From positions 197,408 to 261,407 of the forward strand of contig CAYGFH010000001.1 in NCBI GenBank assembly GCA_964349125.1: a stretch of DNA of 64,000 nt, given 5' to 3'. The notes beneath the pieces were generated by a model. The model was given only the letters and a program-made list of their open reading frames with translations. It did no database searches and had not been told where the DNA came from. The translations under genes and the position numbers were made by a program. Source of the stretch: an uncultured Gammaproteobacteria bacterium. GTDB taxonomy: Bacteria; Patescibacteriota; Microgenomatia; UBA10105; UBA927. Shown piece by piece: positions 7,651 to 37,456 of this stretch; position 1 is the first letter of the stretch; every line of letters starts with the position of its first letter.

Positions 7651-8661
7651 TTACGATGATTTTTTCAAGTACGCTACTATGAAATCTTCTATATCTCCGT
7701 CGAGCACCCTGTCTGTATTGCCCGTTTCAAACTGCGTGCGTAAATCCTTGACCATATGATATGGGTGAAGGACGTATGATCGAATTTGATTCCCCCATCC
7801 TGGCGTTTTATATGCACCCTTAATTTTACTTTGTGCTTCTTTAGCTTCCTGCTCCCGAAGCGTCCATAATTTTGCCTGGAGAATTTTTAATGCGTATTCC
7901 CTATTTTGACCCTGATACCGTTGTGCCTGACTGGCCACGATGATGCCGGTCGGTTTATGTGTTAGGCGAACCGCTGTTGATACTTTGTTTACGTTCTGCC
8001 CGCCTTTACCACCCGCACGATAAAAATCCCATTCCAGATCCTCATCCTTAATCTCGATATCAGCTCCCTCATCCAGTATGGGAAGCACCTCCACCATCGC
8101 AAAGGATGTCTGTCTGAGATTATCGGCATTAAACGGTGACTGTCTGACTAGTCTATGGACACCCACCTCAGCCTTCAAAAACCCGTAGGCAAATCCTCCC
8201 GAAACGCTCAGTGTAATGCTTTTTATCCCTGCTTCATCACCTGCGGTGTAATCAATCTCATCTGATTCCCATCCTTTGCGCTCTATGTACCTGCTGTACA
8301 TACGGTAGAGCATTTGGGTCCAATCCATCGCTTCGGTCCCCCCCTGTCCGGCATGCAGCGATAGAATTGCATCGTTTCTGTCATAGGGACCTGAAAGGTA
8401 CAGCGAAAATTCCAGTTTTCCCACCTCCCGTTCCAAATCCTCTGCGGCATTTTCCGAAATATACAGCTCCAGCATCTCTCCCTCTTCCAACTCTTTCTGG
8501 AGTTCAGCTATTTTTTTCATTTTTTTTGCGGCAGCCTGCGGATCGTTCCAAAAACCGGGGTGCGTGCTTACGGCTTCCAGCTCACGGATTTCCCGCCGTT
8601 TACTATCGAGGTTTAATTTTTCCAGCACGCTTTTTGCGCGTGATTTCAATTCTTCATCCAT
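7651..8661 (-). CDS. prfB: Peptide chain release factor 2
   Basis: GGQ motif ([17 protein letters not shown]) and SPF tripeptide (QSPFNADN) specific to RF2. The ORF is uninterrupted, with no +1 frameshift site. Confidence 0.9.
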
Positions 8662-8673
8662 GCAAACATTGTA

Positions 8674-9069
8674 TCATGGGGAGACTGCAGGAACTTCGGC
8701 AGGCTTACACAGGGCGTCCTGTATATACTGTTTTTGATCATCTGGGAGCTTATCAAACTGCCGGGTAAGCTCATTTACGGCGTTGCCAACCACAATTGTC
8801 TGCATACGTTTTTGTAGTGTGACTTTCACGCCGTTTACACCGTCTGCCGCCATTTTTCCAATGTTGATCGGCTCAGCATGCGCTTCGTCTGAGACGCCGA
8901 GTACCTGCGCTGCCTGCTGGCCGGGAACTGTTTTGATCGCAAAGTCGTGCACCTGTTGAAGCAACTGTGGACGCGGTTCGCGTGTCAAGCGCGGCCAAGC
9001 CAGACTGCCACCGGCTAATGATGTAAGTGCTACCGCGACTGCTAGAGTGAACTGAACAACTGGTCCCAT
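8674..9069 (-). CDS. Hypothetical secreted protein
   Basis: N-terminal signal peptide MGPVVQFTLAVAVALTSLAGGSLA; no recognised domain. Confidence 0.45.
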   Translation of the reverse strand: MGPVVQFTLAVAVALTSLAGGSLAWPRLTREPRPQLLQQVHDFAIKTVPGQQAAQVLGVSDEAHAEPINIGKMAADGVNGVKVTLQKRMQTIVVGNAVNELTRQFDKLPDDQKQYIQDALCKPAEVPAVSP

Positions 9070-9194
9070 ATAGTGATATTATATACCCACCTTATATACG
9101 ATTTGCAGTCCTCGGTATTTTCAGTCTGCAAATCTATTTAGATGGGTTTATACTCAAAAATATTCAGATTTTTTGTGATATATCTAATACGTAT

Positions 9195-9680
9195 ATGATT
9201 ATTCTAGGAATCGATCCCGGTGTCGCCAGAGTTGGGTGGGCGGCAATTTCTGTATCAAAATCTGTTATCACTCCTCTCGGATTTGATTGCGTAGAAACCG
9301 CAAAAGAAAAAGCTCCCGAAGAACGTCTGTTTGAAATTCATGAAGCACTGCGGTCTATAATCAAAACATATAAGCCTGATGGTATGGCGGTTGAAGATTT
9401 ATTTTTTGCCACAAATGCAAAAACCGCGATATCCGTAGGACAATCCCGCGGAGTCATACTCCTGACCGCTTTTGAATGTCATATTCCCGTGGTATCATAT
9501 TCTCCGCTGGCAGTTAAAAGAACAATAACCGGGGATGGAAAAGCAGATAAAAAACAGGTAAGCCGTATGGTGACGCTCACGCTGAAACTTACAAAAACAC
9601 CGGTGTTAGACGATACGACTGATGCCCTCGCAATAGCCATGACACACGCGTATTCATATAAAATTAAGCAATTACAATGA
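9195..9680 (+). CDS. ruvC: Holliday junction resolvase RuvC
   Basis: MIILGIDPGVARVGWA N-terminus; RNase H-like fold with conserved acidic residues. Confidence 0.9.
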   Translation: MIILGIDPGVARVGWAAISVSKSVITPLGFDCVETAKEKAPEERLFEIHEALRSIIKTYKPDGMAVEDLFFATNAKTAISVGQSRGVILLTAFECHIPVVSYSPLAVKRTITGDGKADKKQVSRMVTLTLKLTKTPVLDDTTDALAIAMTHAYSYKIKQLQ

Positions 9681-10252
9681 TCGGAAAACTCACAGGATTC
9701 GTTAATTCCAAAGCAAGAAGTCCAATTATTCTGGACGTTCACGATGTCGGATATCTTGTTCAAATCCCGGAATCGAACCTCCAGTCATTGGTGACAGATG
9801 CGCCACAGGTTCTCTACATACATACACATGTCCGTGAAGATGCATTAGATTTGTACGGGTTTCTCTCAGAAACAGATCAGGTATTTTTTGAGCTGCTCCT
9901 CACGGTTTCCGGCATCGGCCCCAAAACAGCGCTCACCGTTATCGGAAAAGGATCTGACGCTGTGAAAAAAGCTGTCATCAACAACGATGTGGATTTCTTC
10001 ACGCATGTGCCAAGACTTGGTAAAAAGAATGCGCAAAAGATAATTATAGAGCTCAAAAATAAAATCGGAGGGATGACTGATCTTGATTTGACTGATGCAC
10101 CAAGCGAAATGGAGGAACTTTCCGACGCGCTGCAATCCATGGGGTTTGGGAGGAACGAAATTTTGAGAGCTCAGGAAGCACTCAAACAGTCAGACGATTC
10201 TATCGACAATAAAATCCGGTCGGCACTAAAAATTCTCGGTAAAGGAAAATAA
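9677..10252 (+). CDS. ruvA: Holliday junction branch migration protein RuvA
   Basis: MIGKLTGFV...[14 protein letters not shown] domain, followed by HhH motifs (GIGPKTA). Confidence 0.9.
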
Positions 10253-10254
10253 GC

Positions 10255-11262
10255 ATGACAAAAGTAAAACAAAAAGTTCCGGGAACAGAGACGGTATCAC
10301 CTGAGGAAGAAAAACTTTTTGTCTCTCTGCGTGCATCTTCGTGGAATGAATTCGTTGGCCAGGAATCCATTAAACAAAATCTGGGCGTTGCTATTGCAGC
10401 TGCTAAAAAGAGGAAGGAATCTCTCGAGCACATCTTACTCTATGGACCTCCGGGACTGGGTAAAACAACACTTGCGCATATCATTGGTAACGATATGGGC
10501 GTGAACGTGAGAGTCACATCAGGTCCGGCACTTGAACGGGCCGGCGACGTGGCATCCATACTTACGAATTTAGAACAGGGTGACATACTGTTTATTGATG
10601 AAATCCATAGACTGAACAAGGCGGTAGAAGAGACACTCTACCCGGCTATGGAAGACTACGCTCTGGATATTGTCATCGGCAAGGGACCGTCAGCTCGTAC
10701 GCTCCGTCTCGACCTGCCAAGATTTACCATTATCGGAGCAACTACCCGTATAGGATTATTGTCGTCGCCTATGAGAGACAGATTCGGCGTTATTATGCGA
10801 TTGCCGTTTTACGAATCGACTGATTTGGCACAAATACTGTCCAAAGCAGCGGGTAAACTAGCTGTGCCCATCACCGATGAGGCAACACGCGAACTCGCCA
10901 AACGGAGTCGAGGCACACCGCGCATAGCGCTCAGACTGCTCAAGCGGGTACGGGATGTGGCGCAGGTACATGGCACAGGCGTAATTACTCCGGAGATTCT
11001 TCACACATCACTTTCTATGCTTGAAGTGGATAACGCGGGACTTGATGCGTCTGACAGAAGGCTGCTTACCATCATCATCGATTCATTCGGCGGCGGTCCT
11101 GTGGGGCTTGAGACACTTGCAGCGTCCCTATCAGAGGATATCGGGACGGTAGAAGAAGTTCTTGAACCATACCTTATGCAAATTGGATTTCTCAAGAGAA
11201 CACCAAAAGGTAGAATCGCAACACCCCACGCCTTTACCCATTTGGGGAAAACATCCAAATAA
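10255..11262 (+). CDS. ruvB: Holliday junction ATP-dependent DNA helicase RuvB
   Basis: AAA+ [17 protein letters not shown], sensor motifs, winged-helix C-terminus. Confidence 0.95.
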
Positions 11263-11398
11263 TGCCCATCCTATAGAACTGATTAGGATCACATGAGTAC
11301 GTGTCGTGGAAGACAAACTTTTGGAGGGAGGTTTATTGCGGTTGCCTACACCGTGAGCCCGCAAGCCCACGGTGTTTCAAATATATGCAGTTGGTTTC

Positions 11399-12178
11399 TT
11401 ACTTCAACAGTTCGTCGATACTTGGTTTGATCTGGTCAAATGGAACTGCTCCAGGGATAACCATAGTCTTACCGGTTTTATTTTCCAGAAGGATGTTTCC
11501 CGGTGTTCCAGTTACACCTTCTTTTGTCCCCTGAGCCATCTGGTCTTTAACTTTCTGTGCATATTTTCCGCTATCCAAACAGGATGTGAACTTATCCTGT
11601 GGGATACCAAATTCTGCTGCAAGCGGAGCTAACTTATCAAGTGCAAACCCTGTGCCGTTGGCTGTTGTTCTTTCATAAATGGCATCGATATAGCTCCAAA
11701 ATGCATCTTCTCCACCTAACTCTGCCACGCACTCAGATGCTTCTGCTTCTTTCTGTGCATTTGCGTGGAAACTGAGAGGATAATGGCGATATACCCAATT
11801 CACTTTTCCTTTGTACTCATCCAGTATCTGGATAGCAGTTTTATGGAATGTTTTACAAAACGGACATTCCAGGTCTGAGTATTCTATCAATGTTACTTTG
11901 GCATTTTTATCACCGCGGATATGATCCTTGCTGTCCACTTTTGGCGCGACTGCTGCCGCTTGTGGCGCAGGAGCTCCCTGACCTGATGGGGCGGTTCCAT
12001 TTGATACAACTCCACCCTTCTCTAGCATCTGAACCTTGGTCCAAAGTGAACCCATAAAAAATGCTCCGACTACTATAACAAGCAGGAGCAGTGTCTGAAA
12101 CGTATTTCCTGAACCTAATAATCCACCACTAACTGATTTTTTTTCCATGTATTCCTCCTCAAAAAAACTAGTCCCCAT
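11399..12178 (-). CDS. DsbA-family thiol:disulfide oxidoreductase, membrane-anchored
   Basis: N-terminal TM plus CPFC active site (LECPFCKTFH) in a thioredoxin fold. Confidence 0.8.
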   Translation of the reverse strand: MGTSFFEEEYMEKKSVSGGLLGSGNTFQTLLLLVIVVGAFFMGSLWTKVQMLEKGGVVSNGTAPSGQGAPAPQAAAVAPKVDSKDHIRGDKNAKVTLIEYSDLECPFCKTFHKTAIQILDEYKGKVNWVYRHYPLSFHANAQKEAEASECVAELGGEDAFWSYIDAIYERTTANGTGFALDKLAPLAAEFGIPQDKFTSCLDSGKYAQKVKDQMAQGTKEGVTGTPGNILLENKTGKTMVIPGAVPFDQIKPSIDELLK

Positions 12179-12228
12179 ATTGTAAAGTCCCTTACAAAAA
12201 TTCGCAATATCTCAATTCAAAAAAAGTA

Positions 12229-12257
12229 TTGACAAGATTTAGCAGTCATGGTATAAG
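12229..12257 (+). promoter_or_regulatory. Sigma70-type promoter for hsp20 (TTGACA-17 bp-TATAAG)
   Basis: TTGACA at 12229-12234, 17-bp spacer, TATAAG at 12252-12257; AGGAGG Shine-Dalgarno at 12276-12281 upstream of the ATG at 12290. Confidence 0.6.
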
Positions 12258-12265
12258 AGTGCTAG
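12239..12265 (+). promoter_or_regulatory. CIRCE-like inverted repeat (HrcA operator) overlapping the hsp20 promoter
   Basis: TTAGCAGTC-N9-GAGTGCTAG versus CIRCE consensus TTAGCACTC-N9-GAGTGCTAA (8/9 and 8/9 matches, exact 9-nt spacer). Confidence 0.6.
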
Positions 12266-12289
12266 ACACAAAAAAAGGAGGTGACACGT

Positions 12290-12697
12290 ATGTCATATAA
12301 CATATTACCTGGATCATTTTTTCGACTTCCCGCACAATCTTGGGATGAAGATGAGGATTGGGGCATAACAACAGCTTCATCAGGTGGACTCACTATTTCC
12401 GAAGATGAAAAATATGTCTACGTTCAGGCATCGCTGCCCGGCGTGGATCCAAAGGAAATTGAAGTCACATTCGACAAAGGTGTTGTCTGGATAAAAGGTG
12501 AAATTAAGCTGGAAGAGAAAGGAAAGAAGTTCTATAGAAAGTCCGCAAGCCAGTTCTCGTACAGGGTTGCGGTTCCGGGAGATTTGGATCACACCAAAGA
12601 ACCTGAAGCATCCTGCAAAAACGGTGTGATGACTGTTTCTTTCGCAAAATCACCGGCGTCCCAGCCCAAAAAGATTGCAGTGAAAGAAACCAAATAA
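12290..12697 (+). CDS. Hsp20/alpha-crystallin family small heat shock protein
   Basis: Alpha-crystallin domain ISEDEKYVYVQASLPGVDPKEIEVTFDKGVVWIKGE. Start placed at the ATG at 12290, behind a strong SD. Confidence 0.85.
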   Translation: MSYNILPGSFFRLPAQSWDEDEDWGITTASSGGLTISEDEKYVYVQASLPGVDPKEIEVTFDKGVVWIKGEIKLEEKGKKFYRKSASQFSYRVAVPGDLDHTKEPEASCKNGVMTVSFAKSPASQPKKIAVKETK

Positions 12698-12718
12698 GCT
12701 CTAGCATGGGTATTACCC

Positions 12719-12750
12719 AAAAACCCCGCCACATAGGCGGGGTTTTTTAT
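12719..12750 (+). terminator. Rho-independent terminator after hsp20
   Basis: AAAACCCCGCC-ACAT-AGGCGGGG followed by TTTTTT. Confidence 0.8.
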
Positions 12751-12763
12751 TTGATAATACACA

Positions 12764-13528
12764 TCACACACCAAGTATTGACGGGAGAATTCCACCTTTG
12801 CCAAATACAAATATACTTCCCAGGATAATACTAAACACTGCCGTAACACCGGCTAAAAAGACATAGAGGATAGATCCCTGTTTTGCTTTTGCGATCCCAA
12901 GCAACGATATAAGCGTAATGATGGAATTTGATATGACCAGTCCAAGCACAAAAGTCAGCACCAGAAAGCTACCCATCACCTTCCCACCCGCCCCGGTCGC
13001 AGCTATAAACAGTAACAATTGTGTCGGTGTCTCTGCCCCTATCCCATGGACCACACCCACGATTAATGCGGTTTTTACCCCGAACTCCTGGGGATACGAG
13101 AAGTGGCTATGTTTATGTTTATGCGTAATTTTGTGTTCCACAAAATCATATATTTTTGAAGCCGCTTTAAATATGACCATCCACCGGCTTTGCAAATGGA
13201 CATTTCTGCCATGCCGCACAATTGAAAACGCGAGATATACACCCAAAAAAAGCAGGGTGAATCCCACAAACGGCTCCATAAGCGCGTCTACCCAATCAGG
13301 AAGTGTTACACCCAGATTTACTGCCAAAAGCCCGAAGAGTACGATGATAAGAGCATGTCCTAATACATACACAGTACCCAGCCAAAACGACTGTCTCTTA
13401 TTGTCTGTTGATGTTGTGATATCTGTGATTGCTGCTATATGGTCCCAATCAATTCCATGCCGCAGACCCAGCAATAATGTCGTTGCAAATAACAAAAATG
13501 GTGTAACGAATGTCGTTGTTTCCATCAC
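12764..13528 (-). CDS. NicO/RcnA-like nickel/cobalt transporter family membrane protein
   Basis: Multi-TM protein with LGLRHGIDWDHIAAI (HX4DH-type motif of the NicO/HoxN-related family) and a His-rich loop KHKHSH. Confidence 0.55.
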   Translation of the reverse strand: MMETTTFVTPFLLFATTLLLGLRHGIDWDHIAAITDITTSTDNKRQSFWLGTVYVLGHALIIVLFGLLAVNLGVTLPDWVDALMEPFVGFTLLFLGVYLAFSIVRHGRNVHLQSRWMVIFKAASKIYDFVEHKITHKHKHSHFSYPQEFGVKTALIVGVVHGIGAETPTQLLLFIAATGAGGKVMGSFLVLTFVLGLVISNSIITLISLLGIAKAKQGSILYVFLAGVTAVFSIILGSIFVFGKGGILPSILGV

Positions 13529-13989
13529 AGTATGGTGTATACCTGCCGTGAATCATCAGGGAAATGCACCTCGTCAAACAGCACAAAGGAGCTCGGTTGT
13601 ATCGTATAACACACATGCCCATCAGTGCCAGAGATGATTTCAGTTACTCGATCAGTGGACAGGGAGAATCGCTTCGCGTACACCTCCAACCCTTTTTTTG
13701 CCTGAGAGATATCTGTTAACTCCTTTGCCACTCCTTCAAACTGGATTCCCTGTACGTCATCCCCGGGAGTATGAGGCAATACAATAGCTCCAGCCACAGT
13801 GGGAGTCGTTCTCAATTCTTCTGAATGTCTGCGATCTTTCCGGGAAAGCCAATACAATGAGAGATTGCCATCAAATGCAAAATACACGCTGCATACCCAT
13901 GGCTTGATACCTGAGACCGTTGCAACCTGCATAAGTACCGCCTTGCCCAGATAATCGACAATCAGCTGTCGCACTGTTTGTTCACTCAT
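13525..13989 (-). CDS. Hypothetical protein, possibly PNPOx-like FMN-binding split-barrel
   Basis: Size and pattern are compatible with pyridoxamine 5'-phosphate oxidase-like proteins (weak). 4-nt overlap with the downstream gene. Confidence 0.4.
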   Translation of the reverse strand: MSEQTVRQLIVDYLGKAVLMQVATVSGIKPWVCSVYFAFDGNLSLYWLSRKDRRHSEELRTTPTVAGAIVLPHTPGDDVQGIQFEGVAKELTDISQAKKGLEVYAKRFSLSTDRVTEIISGTDGHVCYTIQPSSFVLFDEVHFPDDSRQVYTIL

Positions 13990-27911: not shown

Positions 27912-29474
27912 TTACAGATAGCCCCTATCGTCTAGCGGCCTAGGACGGTGCGTTCTCATCGCACAAATCGCCGGTTCGAATCCGGCTAGGGGTACTAAAT
28001 TTGTTTTAGAAGATGCAACGTCTCCAATTAGAGCAAAAGGAAGGCCTAATTCTGCGGTTCCAATACTTTCATTTTTATAGATAACTCCCTTAGGAAACAT
28101 AAGAGTCTGGAATCTTAACTTATATTCAAAAGGAGCATCAAGCCATATGGTAGCCGCGTTATCAAACAAACTCTCTGAGAGGCTAACAAGATAATCTATA
28201 TTAGTTTCCTCAGATACTGAATCGCTCCTTTCAACTTCCTTAATCACGATTTCCTGATCTAACCTTGACTTTGCTCGTTTGTAATCTTCATCGTCCACTA
28301 CACCATCTAGATTCTTTTGAAGTAGCCGTTCTTTCATTTCTCTGAGCTTAGCCACTTCCTTGGTAACTTTATTTAAAATTGACAGCTTCTCTGACTGTTT
28401 TTGTTTCCATACATCATAAAGAATCTCCTTAAATAGTTTTTTGAAGTCGGAATTAGGCTGTATATCCTTTAGTGTACTGTAGAATATTTCTTCTAGAGTG
28501 TTTTTAGAAATTCTTGTCTTTCCACATAGACAATGATAATAGGCATATCGCTTGTTCCTACCTTTAGACCAACTTCCAGTTAAATATTCACCGCATGCAT
28601 CGCACTTGGCTATATTTTTTAGAGGAAAATCTGGATTTTTTACTAAACGCGGCACTGAAGTAAAGGATTTTCCTTCTCTAACTGCTTTGACGCGGTAAAA
28701 AAGTGCTGGTTCAATTATTTTTTCATGCAAACCTTGCACCTCATCTTTCCATCCTCTTACCTCAATAACGCCCATATACAGTTTATTCCGAAGAATATGA
28801 TCCACAGATTGTGGCGTAAGTTTATTGCCTTTGGCGCTACGTAGTCCCCAACGGTTCATTTTTTGAGCCATATCCTTGAGTGTGTAGCCTGTCTGAGAAT
28901 ATGTCTCAAAAGTTTTTAATATTATTGGTGCTTTAACAGCGTCAATTATTATGCCTGCTGGGGTATTTTTATATCCAATCGGTGCTTTCCATGCCCAAAA
29001 GCCTTGTCTTACCTTTTCCTGAAGACCCCATTTTGTTTTATCTGATCTCGTGTCGTTATCCCATTGAGCTACAGCAGAAAAAATATTTTCAATAAATTTA
29101 CCCGTTGATGTCTCATCTATGTTCTCTGAAACTGATCGTAGAACTACATTAAGCTTACTTAGAACTGCTCGCACCATTTGATGGTCAGCTGTGTTTCTTG
29201 AAAACCGATCTAATCTTTGGACTAGTAGCACATCAATCTTCCCACGGTTCTTATGACAATAATCCAACAGTTTAATGAGTTGCGTCCGATCAGCGGTTTT
29301 CGCGGATTCGCCCTCTTCCCTAAAAACTTGAACAATATTCCATCCTTGCCTCGCGCAGTGTTCACGGCAATATTTTTCTTGCGAGTCTAAACTAAAGCCA
29401 CTAGTTGCCTGTTCCTCTGTGGAAACGCGTGTATATATAAGGGCATTCATAATTTTCTCAGCCTTTTTATCCAT
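27912..29474 (-). CDS. Large serine recombinase (integrase) of integrated element
   Basis: N-terminal resolvase catalytic domain (YTRVSTEEQ catalytic Ser; VQRLDRFSRN), central recombinase domain, zinc ribbon CDACGEYLTG...YYHCLCGK, coiled-coil C-terminus. The last ~27 codons overlap tRNA-Glu on the opposite strand. Confidence 0.9.
   Translation of the reverse strand: MDKKAEKIMNALIYTRVSTEEQATSGFSLDSQEKYCREHCARQGWNIVQVFREEGESAKTADRTQLIKLLDYCHKNRGKIDVLLVQRLDRFSRNTADHQMVRAVLSKLNVVLRSVSENIDETSTGKFIENIFSAVAQWDNDTRSDKTKWGLQEKVRQGFWAWKAPIGYKNTPAGIIIDAVKAPIILKTFETYSQTGYTLKDMAQKMNRWGLRSAKGNKLTPQSVDHILRNKLYMGVIEVRGWKDEVQGLHEKIIEPALFYRVKAVREGKSFTSVPRLVKNPDFPLKNIAKCDACGEYLTGSWSKGRNKRYAYYHCLCGKTRISKNTLEEIFYSTLKDIQPNSDFKKLFKEILYDVWKQKQSEKLSILNKVTKEVAKLREMKERLLQKNLDGVVDDEDYKRAKSRLDQEIVIKEVERSDSVSEETNIDYLVSLSESLFDNAATIWLDAPFEYKLRFQTLMFPKGVIYKNESIGTAELGLPFALIGDVASSKTNLVPLAGFEPAICAMRTHRPRPLDDRGYL
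27921..27994 (+). tRNA. tRNA-Glu (anticodon CUC)
   Basis: Cloverleaf: acceptor GCCCCUA/UAGGGGU, anticodon stem GUGCG/CGCAC with loop UUCUCAU (anticodon CUC), T-arm GCCGG-UUCGAAU-CCGGC; overall close to bacterial tRNA-Glu. CCA is not encoded. Confidence 0.8.
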
Positions 29475-29772
29475 TGTGTCTCCTTAATGGTGCCTTATCA
29501 ATACCTTTAGGTGAATTTTTGGAACCACGTACCACTACTGCCTCTGTAATAATTTCAGCAAGGCCATATAACTTATTTAGCATTTCCTGTAAATCCAAAT
29601 CAGACATGGAGCGGGATCTGCCACCCATTATGTTTCTCGCTTTGTTTAATGAAATCATAAAAGCTCTATTAATTTGTGGCCGGGAGGGGAATCCCAGGCA
29701 CAAACCAATAGAGCTAATAAAAGCCTGATTCCCCTTTTGACCACAAAAAATAGCACCGTTAGAAACACACAT
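29467..29772 (-). CDS. Small hypothetical protein upstream of and translationally coupled to the integrase
   Basis: Stop overlaps the integrase start by 8 nt. No recognisable domain; could be a recombination directionality factor. Weak SD; the start is uncertain (alternative Met gives 63 aa). Confidence 0.3.
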   Translation of the reverse strand: MCVSNGAIFCGQKGNQAFISSIGLCLGFPSRPQINRAFMISLNKARNIMGGRSRSMSDLDLQEMLNKLYGLAEIITEAVVVRGSKNSPKGIDKAPLRRHNG

Positions 29773-29863
29773 TTCATTGTGTTGCTAAAAGTGCCAGTCG
29801 CTTTTCAGCGTGTTAGGCTATTAAATTTTTAATATCCTAATTAAATTGTAAGTAATAATTTTA

Positions 29864-30226
29864 TCAATCGTCAACTTTACCCTTATTAGTAAGAATTGAT
29901 CGTATATCAGCAGATAGTTGTTGTAGTTCTGGAAAATTAATTGAACCAGATACCGGTTGTTTAGGCTTACCGATTACTGTCTCAATAATGAATTGCAGCA
30001 TTCTTTCATCTGGAGGCCTTGTATATACATGCTTTCTTTTACCTTCTATGCGAACGCACACAATCTTTCCAAGAGCTATATCAAGAGAAATATCCGCCAC
30101 GGCTTGCCATTGAGTAAGTAAACGATTCACTAAGATATCTCGCGCTTCTACTTCCATGACTGTTTTTATATTTAGTGCACCTTTTTTTCGTCCGGCACCC
30201 GGTCGCATTCCACCTCGTTGTTTCAT
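29864..30226 (-). CDS. Phage-like DNA-binding protein with N-terminal AT-hook-like GMRPGAGRKKG motif
   Basis: N-terminal basic Gly/Arg/Pro motif common in small phage/mobile-element proteins; no other domain recognised. Confidence 0.5.
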   Translation of the reverse strand: MKQRGGMRPGAGRKKGALNIKTVMEVEARDILVNRLLTQWQAVADISLDIALGKIVCVRIEGKRKHVYTRPPDERMLQFIIETVIGKPKQPVSGSINFPELQQLSADIRSILTNKGKVDD

Positions 30227-30312
30227 AATATTTGATTAAAAATCAATAAAATCAAAACTCTATATTATTATGGTACAGGAAAATTTTATCAGAGGGCAAA
30301 TTAGAGGTATGT

Positions 30313-30525
30313 CTACAGAAGTTCTTTCACGGCAACTCTAAGCACACGTGCAATTCTGTTAAGCACTTCTAACGACGGAGCGTTTCTGCCTTGCTCTATA
30401 TAACCCATATACGCGCGACTAATACCGACTTTTTCTCCAAGTTCTTCTTGAGTTAATCCGGCAGAATTGCGCAACTTCTGTACTTTATGTCCGATCACAC
30501 GGGGTAACTTAGCATTCCTTCTCAT
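30313..30525 (-). CDS. XRE-family (Cro/CI-type) helix-turn-helix transcriptional regulator
   Basis: LRNSAGLTQEELGEKVGISRAYMGYIEQGRNAPSLEVLNRIARVL canonical XRE HTH. Confidence 0.85.
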   Translation of the reverse strand: MRRNAKLPRVIGHKVQKLRNSAGLTQEELGEKVGISRAYMGYIEQGRNAPSLEVLNRIARVLRVAVKELL

Positions 30526-30559
30526 TGCCTAATTGTTGGCCAAATGTCTTACAAGTTAC

Positions 30560-30624
30560 ACTTAGCTACAGTTAGCAATTAGCCTCATATTATGCTTGCA
30601 TTTCTGCTAACTTAGGGTTAGCAT
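30560..30624. promoter_or_regulatory. Divergent promoter/operator region with repeated TTAGC / GCTAA half-sites
   Basis: Three direct TTAGC copies (30562, 30572, 30579) and inverted GCTAA / TTAGG / TTAGC copies (30606-30622) between the XRE gene and the divergent small membrane-protein gene. Confidence 0.45.
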
Positions 30625-30635
30625 AAAGAAGATTT

Positions 30636-30824
30636 ATGATTAAGATTATTCTAGTTGTTATTTTTATTCTCGGTGCACTCTTCTCTAATGCCTCCCAAAT
30701 ACCGGCATGGCTACTAGGTGCCGGCAAGCCTAACGATAAGGAAACACCACATTGGAAAGTTTATGGTGTAATAGCGGCATTTTTGTGGGTCGGCTTATTC
30801 GCTATAGCGAATTTAGCTTTATGA
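30636..30824 (+). CDS. Small two-TM membrane protein divergent from the XRE repressor
   Basis: 62 aa with two hydrophobic helices (ILVVIFILGALFS; VIAAFLWVGLFAIANLAL). Confidence 0.45.
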   Translation: MIKIILVVIFILGALFSNASQIPAWLLGAGKPNDKETPHWKVYGVIAAFLWVGLFAIANLAL

Positions 30825-30933
30825 GTGAGTATGGAAAAGATGATAACCGTACAAGACATAGCACAACTTATTAAGCTTGCTCTATTTGGTAGCAACAAGC
30901 AGCGTGTGTTGGCGGTACGCTTGCTTTGCTTGC

Positions 30934-31386
30934 TTAGATAATGTTGTGTACGTTTGAAGCTTCTAAGGGCATTGTACGGAGCATAACGCCTATTTCTTTA
31001 ACAACGGCATCTGCAAATTCAGCCTTGTGAGCATTATCCTTGAGTATTACTCGCTTCACTCCACGTTTTTGGGCTTGTTTATTATATTCCGGAACGGATG
31101 ATATAGAGATTACTTTATCCGGGCCGAATTTCTCAATGTTAAGTATGTGAAACGAGCCACCGAGCTTACAATCACGATCAAGTAGGATTATGTCAAACTG
31201 AATGCTTTTGTTATCGTTAATTAAATTCTCTACCTGTACATGATTTGTAAGCACAATGGTAGACAGATCATAAGGTTGGTCACCCTCAAGGTCCGCGAGA
31301 CGTTCAAGAATAAGAGAAAGCGTTTTGAGATCGTCTTCTAATATAAGAATAGTTTTGTGTAAGACCATACTTGCAGTATACTCCAA
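30934..31386 (-). CDS. Standalone CheY-like response regulator receiver domain protein
   Basis: ILILEDD acidic pair, ILLDRD phospho-acceptor Asp, ISISS Thr/Ser position, KRVILKD Lys position. No output domain. The likely start is the MVLHK Met. Confidence 0.65.
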   Translation of the reverse strand: MEYTASMVLHKTILILEDDLKTLSLILERLADLEGDQPYDLSTIVLTNHVQVENLINDNKSIQFDIILLDRDCKLGGSFHILNIEKFGPDKVISISSVPEYNKQAQKRGVKRVILKDNAHKAEFADAVVKEIGVMLRTMPLEASNVHNII

Positions 31387-31440
31387 CTGTAAACGGGCAT
31401 TTACCGTTGTATCAAGCCCGAAAGTTAATATTTAAGCAAC

Positions 31441-32124
31441 ATGAAAACCATCAACATTACAAGCGTCTTTTTGTTATTGATACTCATTCTTCTTTTAATG
31501 ATTTTGGAGTTCCAATCAAATAATAAAGAAGTTGTTTTGCCAATCGTTATTCAACTTTATGGTGGTTTTGTAGCGGTACTAGTGGGTGTCTACATTCCGC
31601 TGGCAGAGGCTAAGAAAAAAGAAAGGCAAGAAGAACGTAGGCGCATGATTGCTTCTCTAAAACTCATCTGGTCAGAGCTTGATATAAACGAAATTGTGAT
31701 GAGAAATATACTTCTAGGCCTTCAAACAATGCCAAGAAAAATTGACCAGATGTATGATAGCGTTTTATTCGTACTTAATGTGGCAAAAGACCTAAGAACA
31801 GAGGCTTACTATGGTGCTATCTCGTCAGCCACAATAATGACAATTAGCGAATCTGATGCAATATTTAACTCGCTGCAGCAAGCCTACTACAATATGCAAC
31901 TAACAGAAAGCGGCCTGAGCATGACGGCAGATGTATATAAAGAATATTACCAAAAAAATCTAGCTACTATCCCACAAGAATTCAAGGCACAGGTACTGGA
32001 TATTCATGATAAAGAAATAAAAAAGTGTGTAAGCGCGATTACATTCATCGCTACGGCTAAAAAAATAAGCGGAGCATATCTTTCTAAAACGGGCGTTACT
32101 TTTTCCCAAGGCGCTTATATATAA
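31441..32124 (+). CDS. Hypothetical membrane protein (two N-terminal TM helices plus cytoplasmic helical domain), first gene of the OLD cassette
   Basis: TM1 VFLLLILILLLMIL, TM2 VAVLVGVYIPLA, then a charged KKKERQEERRR region and an alpha-helical domain. Confidence 0.5.
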   Translation: MKTINITSVFLLLILILLLMILEFQSNNKEVVLPIVIQLYGGFVAVLVGVYIPLAEAKKKERQEERRRMIASLKLIWSELDINEIVMRNILLGLQTMPRKIDQMYDSVLFVLNVAKDLRTEAYYGAISSATIMTISESDAIFNSLQQAYYNMQLTESGLSMTADVYKEYYQKNLATIPQEFKAQVLDIHDKEIKKCVSAITFIATAKKISGAYLSKTGVTFSQGAYI

Positions 32125-32186
32125 CGGAATTTGCACGCATGTAATTCCGAGGCCGGTGTATAATCATATAAAGATTAATAATACCT

Positions 32187-34205
32187 ATGATATTAAAAAG
32201 TACCCAATTAATAAACGTAAAAAGCTACTATCCTGACTCTACTATCAACTTTGAGAGCGATATAAATATATTTGTTGGTCCGAATGCCGGTGGCAAAAGC
32301 AATCTATTTGAAATTTTACAAGGGGTTATAAATACTATCCTTTTAAAACACGTTACTCTTCAGCAGAATCCGGCTTGGAACGATATCAATAATCCTGAAA
32401 GAAATAAACCCTTCAAGCTAGATTTTGATAATGTGGACCAAAATAATTTGAAGTTGCATATTTTTGACAAGCATTTTAAACATACTACTGAGCCTCAAAC
32501 TATTTATATATCTCTTGAGTTAACAACTGAGGACGTAAAACAAATTAGCTATATCCTTTCTATAAGGGATATAATCATTGCAAAATTGGAAAAAGATGTT
32601 GTTAACTCTCTTCCTTTAACCACTCTGCTTAAATCAATACCCATTGATATCCACTTTGGGGACTTTGTTAACAAGACTGTAAAGTTAATGGTTAATTCAG
32701 AAAATTCATTTACGATAATGATAAGTGATTATGCTGGATATAGCCCAGAACAACAAGCCAGACTTAATATGTTATTTGAATTAATACAGTACAGGAATGT
32801 CTTTCATGAAATTTCCCTTATATCTTTAACACCTGACATCCACCCTGCTAGTAGGTATTTCGGTCCACACAGAACTCTAAATCAAGTTAGAGATGATATT
32901 AATGTAGATTTGAGCTCTGCTGGAAATCTTGAAGATAATTACGCTAAGGACATAAACCAATTTACTGATAATACACGTTCCTTTATTGACTCATCGTTTA
33001 ATAAATTATGTTACCTTTTTAAATCTGGCAACACACATCTACTTGATAGATATAAAGAGTACTTGAGTAAATATCTCAAGGTCAACTTAAATATAAGTCA
33101 AATTGAGCATCCTACCAAGTTTTTATACAGAGTTAACTTCACACGACAATCTGGTACACCCTTAAGACTAAGCTCAGGTGAGAAAGAGTTCTTTAATCTT
33201 ATTAGTGGATTAATCCTATCGGAGCTCAAAGATGGGATTGTGTTTATAGATGAGCCCGAACTTCATCTCCACTTTCAATGGCAACAGGTTATTCTAAATT
33301 TAATTAAGGACTTGTCGCAGGATTTTAATATACAGTTTCTTATCGTTACACATTCTCCAAAATTTATTAATCAAGAAACGTTACCCAAAATATTTAGGGT
33401 GTATATGGGCAATGAATTGTCTAGTTGTATAGTTAAACCTGAGAATCCTTTAAACGGTGCCGACGCTAAAGATTTAATTAAACTCATCAATACAACGAAC
33501 AATGAAAAGGCATTTTTTACTCAAAAAGTAGTTCTAGTTGAAGGTGTATCTGATCTGATTGTCTATTCAAATATACTTCATAAGTTAAAAGATGATGCTC
33601 ATTCTGAAATAGAGATAGAGGTTATTGAAGTAGCAAGTAAAGGCAATCTATTAAAATTTAGAAATCTGCTGACAGAATGGAAAATTGATAATTACATTAT
33701 TGCAGATTTAGGTTACTTGAAAGATGTTAGACGTGATAAAGAACATATGATTCATGAGGAAGAAACAAAGGCAAAATTTGTTAGTTTGAATGATCAGATC
33801 AACAGTCTTGTTCTCTTTTCAGAAGAGGAGCTTAAAAATATCCTATGTAGAAATCCCGGCGAAGATGCAAACACCATTGTGAACTTAATAAGAGATAAAG
33901 AAACATTGGGTAATGATGAATTTACTAAAAGATTATTAACTCTTTGTAACTACATCCGAACACAGCGTGCTATTAAACTTAACCCCCACGCATCCTTTAG
34001 TATACAGCTCGTGGAGCTACTAACAGACTTAGCAGAAAAAGAAAAAATCCTTATACTTAGGGAGGGGAATTTGGAAGATTTATTTAAGCCTCTTAAGACA
34101 GCGGGTAATAAAGTCACTAACGCTATAAGACTAACGAATGGGATTACACTTACTGATATCCCCGAATATTTAAAAACTTATCTAAGGAATATCTTAACAG
34201 CATAA
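32187..34205 (+). CDS. OLD-family ATP-dependent nuclease-like protein (ABC-type ATPase plus C-terminal Toprim domain)
   Basis: Walker A FVGPNAGGKSNLFEIL, ABC signature LSSGEKEFFNL, Walker B IVFIDEPELHLH, H-loop IVTHSP. The C-terminus has a VVLVEGVSDLIVYS Toprim-like glutamate and downstream IIADLG acidic motif, as in P2 Old / GajA-type proteins. Confidence 0.8.
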   Translation: MILKSTQLINVKSYYPDSTINFESDINIFVGPNAGGKSNLFEILQGVINTILLKHVTLQQNPAWNDINNPERNKPFKLDFDNVDQNNLKLHIFDKHFKHTTEPQTIYISLELTTEDVKQISYILSIRDIIIAKLEKDVVNSLPLTTLLKSIPIDIHFGDFVNKTVKLMVNSENSFTIMISDYAGYSPEQQARLNMLFELIQYRNVFHEISLISLTPDIHPASRYFGPHRTLNQVRDDINVDLSSAGNLEDNYAKDINQFTDNTRSFIDSSFNKLCYLFKSGNTHLLDRYKEYLSKYLKVNLNISQIEHPTKFLYRVNFTRQSGTPLRLSSGEKEFFNLISGLILSELKDGIVFIDEPELHLHFQWQQVILNLIKDLSQDFNIQFLIVTHSPKFINQETLPKIFRVYMGNELSSCIVKPENPLNGADAKDLIKLINTTNNEKAFFTQKVVLVEGVSDLIVYSNILHKLKDDAHSEIEIEVIEVASKGNLLKFRNLLTEWKIDNYIIADLGYLKDVRRDKEHMIHEEETKAKFVSLNDQINSLVLFSEEELKNILCRNPGEDANTIVNLIRDKETLGNDEFTKRLLTLCNYIRTQRAIKLNPHASFSIQLVELLTDLAEKEKILILREGNLEDLFKPLKTAGNKVTNAIRLTNGITLTDIPEYLKTYLRNILTA

Positions 34206-34264
34206 GTTCTAACATTGTTGTTAATATTAGTTAAGCTGTTATAATTGGATGCCTGCCAAATTGT

Positions 34265-34948
34265 ATGAAAATTAATTGGCTGGCGGGTCTATTCATAGGT
34301 TGCCTTCTTACATTGCTTGTGCTGGGCTTTAATACCCCATTGTTGCCCAAATTCCAAATTCAATATACCCTTCAAGGCTCGCAATCTGATTGGTTATCGG
34401 CGATTGGAACACTTTTTGCGACAATTACAGCTTTAGTAATAGCTATTTGGGGAAAAAGCCTTCGCAAATTATCGTTCTGGTCGGACATACGCATAATAGA
34501 TTCGCAAGTAAACTTCCAACCATCTAAAGAAGGACGCGGAGGTTATGTAAGGTTCTTGTTTAAAAATTATGGCAATGATACAGCTGAAGATGTTGAAGTT
34601 TATATAGACCACATACAAGATAACGATTCAGATCGTCTTAATTTTTTGCCAGTTCCACTTAGATGGACACATGACGGTCGGTCAAAAAGGAGCTTCCATC
34701 CAAATCAGTATGGGTATTTAGATTTTTGCAATGTTCATGATATTGGAAACAGATCAGATGGGGCGCATTTTACTTTAGCTGCCGGATCTGGAGTCCCTAG
34801 CTATGAACAAATAGCAACAGGCAAATCTCAACTACACCTAATAATTTTTCAAAAATCTGGTCAAATAAAAAAATACAATGTAAATATTAGTTATAATATA
34901 AGCGATAAAGTTCCCAATATTACAAATATTGCGGAAACTATTAATTAA
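34265..34948 (+). CDS. Hypothetical membrane protein (two N-terminal TM helices plus beta-rich domain)
   Basis: TM1 LAGLFIGCLLTLLVLGF, TM2 IGTLFATITALVIAIW; no recognised domain. 59 nt downstream of the OLD-family gene. Confidence 0.5.
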   Translation: MKINWLAGLFIGCLLTLLVLGFNTPLLPKFQIQYTLQGSQSDWLSAIGTLFATITALVIAIWGKSLRKLSFWSDIRIIDSQVNFQPSKEGRGGYVRFLFKNYGNDTAEDVEVYIDHIQDNDSDRLNFLPVPLRWTHDGRSKRSFHPNQYGYLDFCNVHDIGNRSDGAHFTLAAGSGVPSYEQIATGKSQLHLIIFQKSGQIKKYNVNISYNISDKVPNITNIAETIN

Positions 34949-35455
34949 TTGACTATGGATGAAAAATTAAAAGAGAGTCTACGACATATCCAAACGCATC
35001 CAACAACCGGGTTACCTCATAACCAACAACTTATTACTACACAAATTGAATCTATTTTCATGCTTGATAGTCTAGGTGAAAAAATTGATCAATTAAATAA
35101 AACACTTGTTGATTCAGGAAAAATTAATCAAGGACTTGAACAATCAAATTACCGCCTTCAGTGGGCAATGTTGATACTTACTGCCATAGCTACATTTACG
35201 GTTATTTATCCCATCCTTAAAGGATATTTTGTCAGCCTTTTTGTTGTAAACGCGTTTGGATTTTCTGTAACCGCGGCTACGACTGGCTTAATTGCTGCAC
35301 TTGTATCGGGATTGGTAGCAGGAGCATTACTTGGTCTTGCCAAAAGGAGCTTAAATAAGATGGTATTCACGAATTTAGGCGATCAAATTAAAATACGCGA
35401 TAGTGTTAATATCGTATTAAAAGATAAGGACGGGAATATTAAAGAAGCGAGATGA
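34949..35455 (+). CDS. Hypothetical protein with N-terminal coiled coil and C-terminal TM helices
   Basis: Directly abuts the previous gene. Hydrophobic C-terminal half (WAMLILTAIATFTVIYPIL...LIAALVSGLVAGALLGLA). The start is probably the ATG at 34955. Confidence 0.5.
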   Translation: MTMDEKLKESLRHIQTHPTTGLPHNQQLITTQIESIFMLDSLGEKIDQLNKTLVDSGKINQGLEQSNYRLQWAMLILTAIATFTVIYPILKGYFVSLFVVNAFGFSVTAATTGLIAALVSGLVAGALLGLAKRSLNKMVFTNLGDQIKIRDSVNIVLKDKDGNIKEAR

Positions 35456-35505
35456 CATAGCTAACGGCACTTTTATTTAATAGAAGAATATAATTTACCC
35501 ATAGA

Positions 35506-36027
35506 TCACCAGGATGAGACTAATTTTACTAGTTCTTCCCTCGTTCTATTTATTTCATCTTCTAGTTGTTTATATAATTCTTTTGGCATGACATCCGATG
35601 TTCTCATTTGCCACGCATACAAATAATATTTAAGTTTTATACTCACTGTATTGTTAACTTTTTGAAGTTTATTTGCTACAAAAGCAATATGCTCGGAATC
35701 ACGAGGTGGTGATTGGAAGAAGGCCTGTTCGCCTTCAGCGCAGAATTTTAAAACTTCTTCACCTAAATTACTTTTCGTAATAGCGGAATTTCTACGTTTT
35801 TCAAAAAAATATCCTATTAGTTTCTCAACTATCTTATACAACATTGTAAAACCACCAGCTCCACCTGCTGAACCGACTAAAATTGTCGTATACAATTGAG
35901 TCTGACTTATAACAATTGTATTATTTACAGAATTAACAAATAAAGCTGTGGCTGTAGCGTCTGACATATATATAGAGCAGTTTACTGCAAAACTAGTGGC
36001 TGATCCATAGGCTATGTGCTGTATCAA
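35506..36027 (-). CDS. Hypothetical protein (island cargo)
   Basis: 173-aa ORF with a Gly-rich motif SAGGAGGF; no recognised domain. Confidence 0.4.
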   Translation of the reverse strand: MIQHIAYGSATSFAVNCSIYMSDATATALFVNSVNNTIVISQTQLYTTILVGSAGGAGGFTMLYKIVEKLIGYFFEKRRNSAITKSNLGEEVLKFCAEGEQAFFQSPPRDSEHIAFVANKLQKVNNTVSIKLKYYLYAWQMRTSDVMPKELYKQLEDEINRTREELVKLVSSW

Positions 36028-36228
36028 CGTTATAAATATTAATTCTAATACACTATGGCAGTCTTAACTGTGAATGGATGGAGGCTATTAGAAATGGAGC
36101 TACTCCACTGCCTAAATGAAAACAGAAGCTGGTTCCATTGAGAAATCATCTGGGGTACAAGCAAAAAGACAAGGCTAAATGCCTGGTTTTTTGTTTGTAT
36201 TCTCTTAAGTATTGAACCGTCCGAAGGA

Positions 36229-36281
36229 TCGGTTCGGAGCGCCCGTATACCTCGGCGTTGTTACTCATCCGGCTAGGGGGA
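36229..36281 (+). repeat. Degenerate duplicate of the tRNA-Glu 3' end (putative distal att site of the island)
   Basis: GGTTCG...ATCCGGCTAGGGG matches tRNA positions 27973-27992; 13-nt exact core. Confidence 0.5.
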
Positions 36282-36295
36282 CATACAGAAAAAAT

Positions 36296-36919
36296 CTAAA
36301 TAAATTTTAGCGTTGAGAGAATGGAATCAAACAGCTCGAAATCTTGCACTCCTGGCTGTTTTTCAAAATCATAATACACGCCGATTGATAGTGGGTTTTC
36401 TTCATCGGGGTAATCAATTTTGACGTCATATATTTTTTTGTTTGCTTCTCGCAATTCGCATCTTATTACCTCTTTGTTAGAAATCCGTATTACTTTCCCT
36501 CCACTAACAACTGTTGAACAGTCATACGGGTCTGATCCGCCATAACCGAAAACACTTTTCCTCCTAGTGATTATCATTGAATTCCTCTCCCCTGTTTTTT
36601 CTGTAATTCTAAGTTTTAGCCACCCGTCTGGCTCAACAGTCTCGATAGCGATGACAATTTCAGGAATTATCATTGAAATGCCAAGTTCAGTGTTGGAATA
36701 CGTGCCTGAAGAAATATTCCTAGGTTTCGGGCTTGGAGTTGCAGAAGGCTGAAATAACACCGTGCCATTTGGCGGAAGGTTTACAAATTGCACTTCACGC
36801 TTTTGTTCATAACTATTTATCCGGAAATATAAATATAAAATAAAAAATAATATTCCGAATAAGATGGTTAACAATACAAACGTTGAGTTTATTTGAATCA
36901 GAATCTTTTTCTTTTTCAT
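36296..36919 (-). CDS. Hypothetical membrane-anchored protein
   Basis: Start placed at MKKKKIL; N-terminal TM FVLLTILFGILFFILYLY, then a Pro/Ser-rich linker and a globular domain. Confidence 0.45.
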   Translation of the reverse strand: MKKKKILIQINSTFVLLTILFGILFFILYLYFRINSYEQKREVQFVNLPPNGTVLFQPSATPSPKPRNISSGTYSNTELGISMIIPEIVIAIETVEPDGWLKLRITEKTGERNSMIITRRKSVFGYGGSDPYDCSTVVSGGKVIRISNKEVIRCELREANKKIYDVKIDYPDEENPLSIGVYYDFEKQPGVQDFELFDSILSTLKFI

Positions 36920-37006
36920 ATATATCCTTTTAAGGATAACATAAAAATTCTTCCGATTCCCCCAAATGGGGTACAAGTAAAAAATTATATGGTAAACTGA
37001 TTCCAT

Positions 37007-37456
37007 ATGGGCGAAGAAATTTCAAAAGAGATACAAACGCTGGCACAAATCCTTCCGCCTCAATCTGAGTCGGAGCTTGCGGAACATTTTCAAAAATCAC
37101 AATGGTTGATCGAACAAATTCTAGAACTGAAGCCGTATGATATTAAAGCAGCTGGAACTGTCGATGGTGCTTTCATGCTAGCAGCAAGGCTTCATGCAGA
37201 GAAGTTAGACCCAACTAATCTGATAAATGCGACTGAAACAGATAACGCTCTAGGGGTTATCCTTGTCCGTGCAATTAATCCGACAGCTGGAGAAGATAAT
37301 CATATACAAGGAGCAGTATTTTGTAGAAATCCCAATAGCCCTCAGGATGAATATGATAAACAATTTAAAGATTTCATGGGATTGGTGGAGGGATTTCTAA
37401 ATAGTCCTATTTATCAGAGGCATCCTCAGGATGGGCAGCATAAACTATCGGAATAG
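37007..37456 (+). CDS. Hypothetical protein
   Basis: 149-aa ORF divergent from the previous gene; no recognised domain. Confidence 0.4.
   Translation: MGEEISKEIQTLAQILPPQSESELAEHFQKSQWLIEQILELKPYDIKAAGTVDGAFMLAARLHAEKLDPTNLINATETDNALGVILVRAINPTAGEDNHIQGAVFCRNPNSPQDEYDKQFKDFMGLVEGFLNSPIYQRHPQDGQHKLSE

Follow-up and report, generated by a model that had tools for sequence, protein, structure and literature searches.

A divergent OLD-family protein, probably a stand-alone gene of Class 1-like context, on a serine-recombinase element at tRNA-Glu

Proteins of the OLD family are divided into classes by their genetic context, and Class 1 consists of single genes that have no conserved partner (PMC10568477, PMC12392090). 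Class 1 proteins are also shorter, and they are without the helical Toprim insert and the C-terminal helical domain of Class 2 (PMC7049728, PMC10568477); helices inserted into the Toprim domain are a mark of Class 2, not of Class 1 (PMC10568477, PMC7049728). Here we consider an OLD-family gene in a stretch of 64,000 nucleotides, called the window in its entirety below, from contig CAYGFH010000001.1 of assembly GCA_964349125.1 (positions 197,408 to 261,407 of the forward strand; GTDB lineage Patescibacteriota). The gene stands in an integrated element among genes for three small membrane proteins, which we call memA, memB, and memC, and a preliminary description of this DNA had proposed the four genes as a candidate defence cassette in which the membrane proteins might disrupt membranes.

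A new four-gene system of OLD plus membrane proteins is not supported by our analysis, and the OLD-family protein is best regarded as a divergent member of a known family. The explanation that we favour, and consider probable, is that of a stand-alone single-gene OLD with a Class 1-like context, carried as cargo by a serine-recombinase element of ~8.3 kb at a tRNA-Glu gene, with the membrane-protein genes as independent accessories. We prefer a single-gene OLD to a four-gene system because the membrane-protein genes are not conserved partners: four OLD homologues, with identities of 58-42%, are without memA, memB, and memC, and ~165 OLD loci fetched via OLD searches gave no match to profiles of these genes. 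As far as can be judged from the neighbouring sequence, the OLD of the window is therefore of Class 1 by genetic context, and memA, memB, and memC are best seen as accessory genes of the element and not as obligate partners of OLD.

The OLD-family protein and its co-directional neighbours

The four genes, with a promoter-like site that lies among them, are the following.

31441..32124, plus strand: memA, 227 amino acids; two N-terminal transmembrane (TM) helices (hydropathy), then a conserved region with an IWSELDINE motif
32187..34205, plus strand: OLD-family ABC ATPase and Toprim protein, 672 amino acids (Pfam, PADLOC, NCBIfam, motif alignments, AlphaFold, Foldseek)
34218..34245, plus strand: sigma-70-like promoter match, TTGTTA-16-TATAAT with TG upstream; 10 of 12 positions agree
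34265..34948, plus strand: memB, 227 amino acids; two TM helices and a beta-sandwich (residues 75-225)
34949..35455, plus strand: memC, 166-168 amino acids; conserved soluble N-terminal region, two TM helices, and conserved C-terminal tail

The combination of ATPase and Toprim domains that had been read from the sequence of the 672-residue protein was confirmed by profile searches. Pfam returned AAA_21 (5e-22), AAA_15 (4.9e-18), SMC_N (3.6e-11), and OLD-like_TOPRIM (1.3e-12), all above the gathering score, the last of these covering residues 443-508 and scoring 48.5 bits where the cut-off is 23.2. The best PADLOC model was 'Old' (1e-26), followed by AriA, GajA, AriAB, and PtuA, and NCBIfam gave sub-threshold matches only, to PtuA and retron_eff_Eco8 (partial), with scores far under the family cut-offs. 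Neither the Pfam nor the PADLOC search returned a DUF4435 match. Both domains of an OLD-family protein are thus present, the ABC ATPase and the OLD-type C-terminal Toprim, as are all of the motifs quoted earlier: GPNAGGKSN (31-39), LSSGEK (328-333), FIDEPE (353-358), VTHSP (387-391), VVLVEGVSD (448-456), and IIADLG (504-509). Among 84 homologues, the key ATPase residues, namely K37 of Walker A, S329-G331 of the signature (328-333), D355/E356 of Walker B, and H389, are invariant or nearly so, and the key Toprim residues E452, D456, and D507 are invariant in the same alignment. E630, in EGNLE (626-630), is our guess for a metal-B residue.

A model of the protein built by AlphaFold with the 84 homologues (mean predicted local distance difference test score, pLDDT, 89.7; predicted template modelling score, pTM, 0.87) contains an all-helical insert of ~85 residues (510-594) between Toprim strands 3 (501-506) and 4 (596-598), and further C-terminal helices at 629-671. 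The protein belongs to a long subfamily of ~640-690 amino acids with such a helical Toprim insert.

The second Asp of the Toprim DxD motif is Gly (G509) in this protein and in its 58% identical homologue; the resulting DLG is encoded at 33705-33713 (residues 507-509). The acidic metal-A triad (Glu + DxD) is accordingly incomplete, with E452 and D507 present and Gly at 509. Position 509 is Asp in 78 of the 84 family members and Gly in six, and the identity of the DxG carriers to the OLD of the window ranges from ~30% to 58%, a scattered recurrence in the alignment which suggests that the variant is tolerated or functionally distinct. The metal-A triad of TsOLD is E377/D431/D433, in which D433 is a metal-A ligand; a triple mutant of this triad is 12-15-fold less active, and single-site metal mutants still nick DNA (PMC7049728). 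In E. coli YbjD, the whole Toprim domain is not needed for the phenotype.

One might suppose from this substitution that the nuclease is impaired or altered, and that the protein acts mainly via its ATPase domain or that the gene is drifting towards loss. This would fit the rarity of Gly where most members have Asp and the metal-binding role of the equivalent D433, together with the low activity of the TsOLD triple mutant. However, the ORF (open reading frame) is intact, and K37, D355/E356, H389, E452, D456, D507, and E630 are all conserved; DxG is apparently tolerated, as it occurs in six members that include the closest homologue, and nicking is kept in the TsOLD single-site mutants. We regard impairment or drift as quite unlikely. 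DLG may or may not alter the function of the protein, given that D433 is a metal-A ligand in TsOLD and that YbjD can do without its Toprim.

The arrangement of the four plus-strand ORFs was borne out, with spacings of 62 bp between memA and OLD, 59 bp between OLD and memB, and 0-6 bp between memB and memC. Two or three TM helices had been proposed for each small protein, and a Kyte-Doolittle scan predicts two TM segments apiece in memA, memB, and memC. In agreement with the view that these proteins are not homologous to each other, memA and memB, both of 227 amino acids, are unrelated on comparison. The promoter match at 34218-34245, between OLD and memB, is the best sigma-70-like match within 30.2-36.4 kb, and an extended -10-like sequence, TGTATAAT, is located at 32157-32164, 23 nt 5' of the OLD start codon. 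These promoter-like sites before OLD and memB lend weak support to separate transcription units; shuffled sequence gives as many sigma-70-like matches in total as the region does, or more. No convincing plus-strand terminator was found between the four genes. Public-assembly contigs of 809 kb and 127 kb carry this sequence, and all four genes occur together in this element only, as identical copies in several samples.

Neighbourhoods of OLD and of the membrane-protein genes in other genomes

The contexts inspected were confined to those of four of ~27 close OLD homologues, five of 23 memC homologues, and three memA look-ups. The closest OLD homologue (58% identical, locus L165) has a MmeI-type restriction-modification enzyme, an M78 peptidase, and a Replic_Relax protein as neighbours; a homologue at 49% (L166) has a protein kinase and an acetyltransferase, one at 48% (L167) an amidase as well as genes of transposase and integrase type, and one at 42% (L169) methyltransferases and trigger factor. 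When all proteins of the island were compared with these four loci by tblastn, nothing but OLD itself matched. At positions 925-5346 of L165, the OLD homologue is seen beside a MmeI-like type IIG enzyme and a helix-turn-helix (HTH) regulator, together with a peptidase of the M78 (ImmA-like) kind and a small protein of GIY-YIG-like appearance, which suggests a defence-island context unlike that of the window.

A broader comparison was made with hidden Markov model (HMM) profiles of memA, memB, and memC, searched against six-frame ORFs of 183 loci. These include ~165 OLD-family loci fetched via OLD searches, in none of which a profile match was found; the profiles match only the element of the window and loci fetched via memA or memC, among which one, L177/L178, has an OLD gene. 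When genomes and metagenomes were scanned with the alignment of OLD, the scans keyed on generic ABC motifs, so that 159 of 160 loci are distant OLD-family genes, which were used as a background set and not to represent the close clade. In a crude survey, an adjacent co-directional ORF with at least two predicted TM segments was present at six of 127 OLD-family loci.

Overall, to judge from these loci, the OLD of the window is a single gene with no conserved partner nearby, as in Class 1, and the components of the proposed system of OLD and three membrane proteins do not co-occur across divergent genomes, with the exception of memC and OLD in L177/L178. Conservation of the neighbourhood failed from the side of OLD and from the side of the membrane genes alike; unrelated, non-conserved neighbours are the result that the preliminary description had itself named as speaking against its four-gene cassette.

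For memA, a rare family, five homologues were found, and no OLD gene is near those whose contexts were read (68%, 42%, and 40% identical). The first (L170), which lies among small ORFs, retains a divergent neighbour of the type encoded at 30934-31386 in the window, followed by unrelated genes; the second (L171) lies between a DNA methyltransferase and rpsJ; and the third adjoins a tyrosine integrase. These contexts indicate that memA and the divergent 30934-31386 gene may form a small module, one that is found in the absence of OLD too. The divergent pair of 30934-31386 (minus strand) and memA (31441-32124, plus strand) is kept at positions 24-1027 of L170, where the ORFan is shortened and its N-terminal 59 amino acids are 85% identical to the product of 30934-31386. 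At positions 5087-8729 of L171, and also in L172 and L173, the memA homologue is inserted between rplC and rpsJ along with three small ORFs and an N6/N4 DNA methyltransferase, at an unusual site inside a ribosomal-protein gene cluster.

The memB family is separate, widespread, and unnamed, with 173 representative clusters at 50% identity and no Pfam, PHROG, or PADLOC model. Its AlphaFold model (pLDDT 92.1) has two TM helices and then the beta-sandwich (75-225), and a FLPVPLxWTH motif is conserved; memB is a candidate new domain family. Lys/Arg residues after TM2 suggest that the beta-sandwich faces the cytoplasm. Longer proteins that contain the memB domain gave no informative fusion in a Pfam search.

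As for the proposal that the small proteins disrupt membranes, the searches made showed no likeness of memA, memB, or memC to known pore formers or holins. Nor do they appear to be ordinary phage lysis or holin genes, since PHROG, phage-genome, and plasmid searches gave no match to them. A PHROG search returned no match for any of the three; tblastn of memA, memB, memC, and OLD against 50,697 phage records returned nothing but one ATPase fragment of 13% coverage; tblastn of memB against plasmids gave no match; and IMG/VR scans with the memC, memB, and OLD alignments gave no relatives of memB or memC and distant ATPase fragments only for OLD. There is in addition no endolysin in the island, and the predicted memB fold is not that of a pore former. 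A phage lysis cassette was rejected for lack of both an endolysin and phage homologues.

Of the small unnamed memC family, 23 homologues were found. Comparison with them indicates that the ATG at 34955 is the more likely start of memC. Across the family, some 70 N-terminal residues (PTTGxPHNQQ...LExSNYRLQ) are strongly conserved; the TM hairpin is variable, whereas the tail, KDKDGNIKE, is conserved. The gene was located in five distinct contexts, as follows.

34949-35455: memC in the window
7430-7948: memC in L175
8001-8519: memC in L177 (same context as L178)
8001-8507: memC in L179
8001-8456: memC in L181

OLD is absent from L175, L179, and L181. In L175, memC is 69-70% identical, the recombinase 72%, and a 120-residue gene of the element 69%, and there is no OLD or recognisable defence gene within the element. 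In L179, memC stands downstream of a 1120-residue PIN-TPR-GreABC protein, and in L181 the serine-recombinase element carries a DUF4145/PD-T7-4-like gene but no OLD. Both a serine recombinase and an HTH gene are visible in the window, L177/L178, and L181, with the recombinase only in L175 and the HTH gene only in L179. To judge from these contexts, memC is a recurrent gene of a serine-recombinase element family whose cargo varies (OLD, PIN-TPR-GreABC, DUF4145). Right after the memC element of L175, at 8372-13921, is an apparently split second serine recombinase, with DUF4145 and Shedu (SduA_C) genes beyond, a layout which suggests tandem elements or a defence hotspot.

The locus L177/L178, from the Patescibacteria metagenome-assembled genome GCA_035946335.1, deserves closer description. 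Its order is tRNA-Gln, serine recombinase, HTH, a 1-TM zinc-ribbon protein, memC, OLD, and a 3-TM protein; memC (41% identical to that of the window) sits 3 bp upstream of a 686-residue OLD, and the 3-TM protein of 136 residues (TM136) comes next, again after a 3-bp gap. The OLD protein here is only 26% identical to that of the window, yet the two fall into one long subfamily (hhalign probability 100%, E 9e-58, 609 columns). The two loci are alike in a recombinase ORF that overlaps a tRNA, in HTH (47%), in memC (41%), and in a long OLD with membrane proteins on both sides. They differ in that the OLD of L177 has an intact DxD (DWD), memC is upstream of OLD there and downstream in the window, and memA and memB are absent from L177/L178, the other membrane proteins of which are non-homologous.

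This second case raises the question of whether memC, perhaps along with further small membrane proteins, serves long-form OLD as a functional partner in Patescibacteria elements. In such a membrane-associated OLD system, sensing or tethering would fall to the membrane protein and execution to OLD, or vice versa. The tight memC-OLD-3-TM arrangement of L177/L178, within the same layout of tRNA, recombinase, HTH, and cargo as in the window, would be consistent with such a partnership, as would the shared subfamily of the two OLD proteins, the close spacing and common direction of the window genes, and the fact that multi-TM neighbours are found at ~5% of OLD-family loci and yet at both memC-bearing OLD loci. 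However, three of the five distinct memC contexts have no OLD, and none of the four close OLD homologues examined has memC; if the case that prompted the idea is left out, OLD is present in one of four independent memC contexts. Furthermore, the gene order differs between the two cases, with memB and a promoter-like site separating OLD from memC in the window, and memC is always within the same element family, so that a shared backbone beside a cargo slot can explain the co-occurrence. A partnership of memC and OLD thus seems unlikely to us; if it were real, the pair would constitute a membrane-linked OLD system outside Classes 1-4. We are similarly doubtful of a wider version, in which the memC family couples to interchangeable cytoplasmic effectors (long-form OLD, PIN-TPR-GreABC, DUF4145) on Patescibacteria serine-recombinase elements. 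Only if memC turned out to be such a general membrane adaptor for different effectors would the locus gain in importance.

Several points weigh against our preference for a stand-alone OLD with accessory membrane genes. The contexts cover four of ~27 close OLD homologues and five of 23 memC homologues. The four genes may be co-transcribed, since they share one direction, the gaps are short, and no convincing terminator separates them. L177/L178 is a second OLD flanked by membrane proteins, in a memC-OLD-TM136 run with 3-bp gaps. In addition, the OLD of the window is longer than a canonical Class 1 protein and is predicted to have a Class-2-like helical Toprim insert, and with Gly for the second Asp of DxD its nuclease activity is not assured.

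The integrated element and a possible role for its OLD

The presence of an AT-rich element integrated at a tRNA gene, which had been put forward from the sequence, is corroborated by low GC content, a tRNA-Glu gene with its 3'-end repeat, and a large serine recombinase. The GC fraction is 0.33-0.40 across 28-37 kb and ~0.45 on both sides, and the element (27980-36282, ~8.3 kb) is bounded by the 3' end of tRNA-Glu and an attachment (att)-like repeat. The repeat is exact over 13 nt (36267-36279) and extends to 16 nt with one mismatch, for which ~0.04 chance matches are expected per window. Apart from the four genes described above, the features of the element are as follows.

27921..27995, plus strand: tRNA-Glu (CTC), the integration target (ARAGORN; Rfam tRNA, 57.5 bits)
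27980-27995, plus strand: left att repeat copy, the last 13-16 nt of tRNA-Glu (repeat search)
27912..29474, minus strand: large serine recombinase, 520 amino acids (Pfam Resolvase 1.1e-33, Recombinase 4e-15; PHROG integrase 2.3e-92)
29864..30226, minus strand: gene for 120 amino acids, function unassigned, kept beside the recombinase in a related element (69% identical copy in L175)
30313..30525, minus strand: HTH_31/HTH_3 regulator of Cro/CI type, 70 amino acids (Pfam; PHROG transcriptional regulators 5.7e-14)
30636..30824, plus strand: 62-residue protein with two predicted TM segments, of no known family (ORF; hydropathy scan)
30934..31386, minus strand: 150-residue soluble protein, divergent from memA (no Pfam, PADLOC, NCBIfam, or PHROG match)
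35506..36027, minus strand: 173-residue ORFan, last gene within the element (no Pfam, PADLOC, NCBIfam, or PHROG match)
36267..36282, plus strand: right copy of the tRNA-Glu 3' end (ATCCGGCTAGGGGgAC), putative right boundary; 13 nt exact

The copy of the 120-residue gene in L175 (69%) adjoins the 72% identical recombinase, and the copy of the HTH regulator in the L177/L178 element is 47% identical. The recombinase ORF has 520 amino acids in the integrated form and 498 in a modelled excised circle. It runs antisense through the entire tRNA-Glu gene (27912-27995) and spans the left junction of the element; in L177, a distantly related element, the tRNA-Gln (3995-4066) is likewise overlapped by the recombinase ORF (4006-5772). 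The overlap with a tRNA in both elements suggests that the 3' end of the recombinase gene contains attP.

A PHROG search of the 8.3-kb element found neither structural nor lysis genes of phages, and a prophage was rejected as an explanation for want of structural genes. According to the ORF list and Pfam, a helicase, a reverse transcriptase, and a separate Toprim ORF are likewise absent from the island, and at E<=0.1 the sole Rfam match in it is tRNA. The 150-residue protein at 30934-31386 appears receiver-like by eye (ILILEDD...ILLDRD), yet without a Pfam match. Low GC (0.375-0.41) extends ~1.2 kb past the att repeat, over 36296-37456, which holds two ORFans, for a 236-residue 1-TM protein (minus strand) and a 149-residue protein (plus strand). 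The right edge of foreign DNA may be nearer 37.5 kb, or 36296-37456 may be an older remnant.

If a stand-alone OLD is carried as cargo, its action might be envisaged as follows. The element would integrate at tRNA-Glu via its serine recombinase and bring OLD with it; the ABC-ATPase heads, if they act like those of P2 Old, TsOLD, and VcOLD, would dimerise and bind or hydrolyse ATP; ATP binding and hydrolysis would serve as a switch that answers infection and gates the Toprim nuclease or nickase; and the Toprim site would nick or cleave nucleic acid, so that an invading phage or a competing element would be kept from replicating. The defence activity, trigger, and substrate of OLD are all inferred here from such analogies.

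A different role, in the service of the element or the cell and not of phage defence, can also be imagined, such as inter-element competition, maintenance of the element or of a plasmid, or a housekeeping-like function. The carrier of OLD is indeed a small integrative element, the gene for P2 Old is likewise an interference gene encoded by an element (PMC10568477), and the archaeal OLD Cran1 is described as essential for cell-cycle progression in work cited in PMC13261556. The distribution of the gene is nevertheless patchy, unlike that of a housekeeping gene, and close homologues occur in varied, often mobile or defence-like contexts (restriction-modification enzyme, integrases, transposases); present evidence would fit either anti-phage or anti-element activity. 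We judge a role of this kind to be very unlikely.

With a stand-alone OLD as cargo, the locus would show that, in the reduced genomes of Patescibacteria, defence-type cargo is found on small serine-recombinase elements, a result that is useful for cataloguing and unsurprising.

Comparison with the known OLD classes

The structural searches place the protein within the family at large. In Foldseek comparisons of the model with the PDB, the retron-Eco8 OLD (9lpa_B, 7.1e-14), GajA (1.5e-13), and TsOLD (2.0e-13) follow each other closely, all with 13-15% structural-alignment identity, so the predicted fold is without preference for one class. Sequence searches of the PDB matched TsOLD (6p74) as the sole solved structure over the ATPase end plus Toprim, no GajA chain passed at E<=1e-3, and the C-terminal 243 amino acids of OLD alone gave no OLD match.

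The absence of the partners of the described multi-gene systems, as first claimed, was upheld for the island: there is no GajB, no retron reverse transcriptase, and no separate AriB. GajA of Gabija (Class 2) resembles the OLD of the window in fold (Foldseek 1.5e-13 to 8u7i_A and 8x5i) and in its helical Toprim insert. Unlike with GajA, however, no UvrD/PcrA/Rep-like GajB is found downstream or in the island, and the GajA models of PADLOC score below 'Old'. Gabija and Class 2 were rejected on these grounds: the gene downstream of OLD is memB, with no Pfam match, and no island ORF has a helicase domain.

The retron-Eco8 OLD (Class 3) shares the chemistry of ABC ATPase and Toprim and is the top Foldseek match. 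Class 3 was rejected, as no reverse transcriptase ORF or Pfam match is present in 27-38 kb, where Rfam finds tRNA only, although a novel non-coding RNA is possible. The same chemistry links the protein to AriA/AriB of PARIS (Class 4), and PADLOC gave partial AriA/AriAB matches; Class 4 was rejected, as ATPase and Toprim are fused in one polypeptide, there is no DUF4435 or separate AriB, and AriA/AriAB score below 'Old'. AbiL was likewise rejected, its partner genes being absent.

Class 1 (P2 Old; TsOLD, PDB 6P74; VcOLD; YbjD/OldB) is the closest in context, as these genes and the OLD of the window alike have no conserved partner gene, and like P2 old the gene of the window is carried on a mobile element. 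Likeness extends to the top-scoring PADLOC model, 'Old', and to TsOLD as the only solved chain matched by sequence over both the ATPase end and Toprim. The OLD of the window does not have the size and compact Toprim of Class 1: it has 672 amino acids, in comparison with 528 for the TsOLD chain and 552 for YbjD, with the predicted helices at 510-594 (the ~85-residue insert) and 629-671, and DLG in place of DxD. Its structural-alignment identity to any solved OLD is just 13-15%. Those homologues that bear a taxon name are from Levyibacteriota, Moraniibacteriota, and 'Patescibacteria group', which makes a Patescibacteria host probable for the element; the hosts of close relatives appear to be mainly Patescibacteria. 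If our explanation is right, a divergent clade, long, sometimes with DxG, and apparently largely restricted to Patescibacteria, is added to the poorly studied single-gene OLDs.

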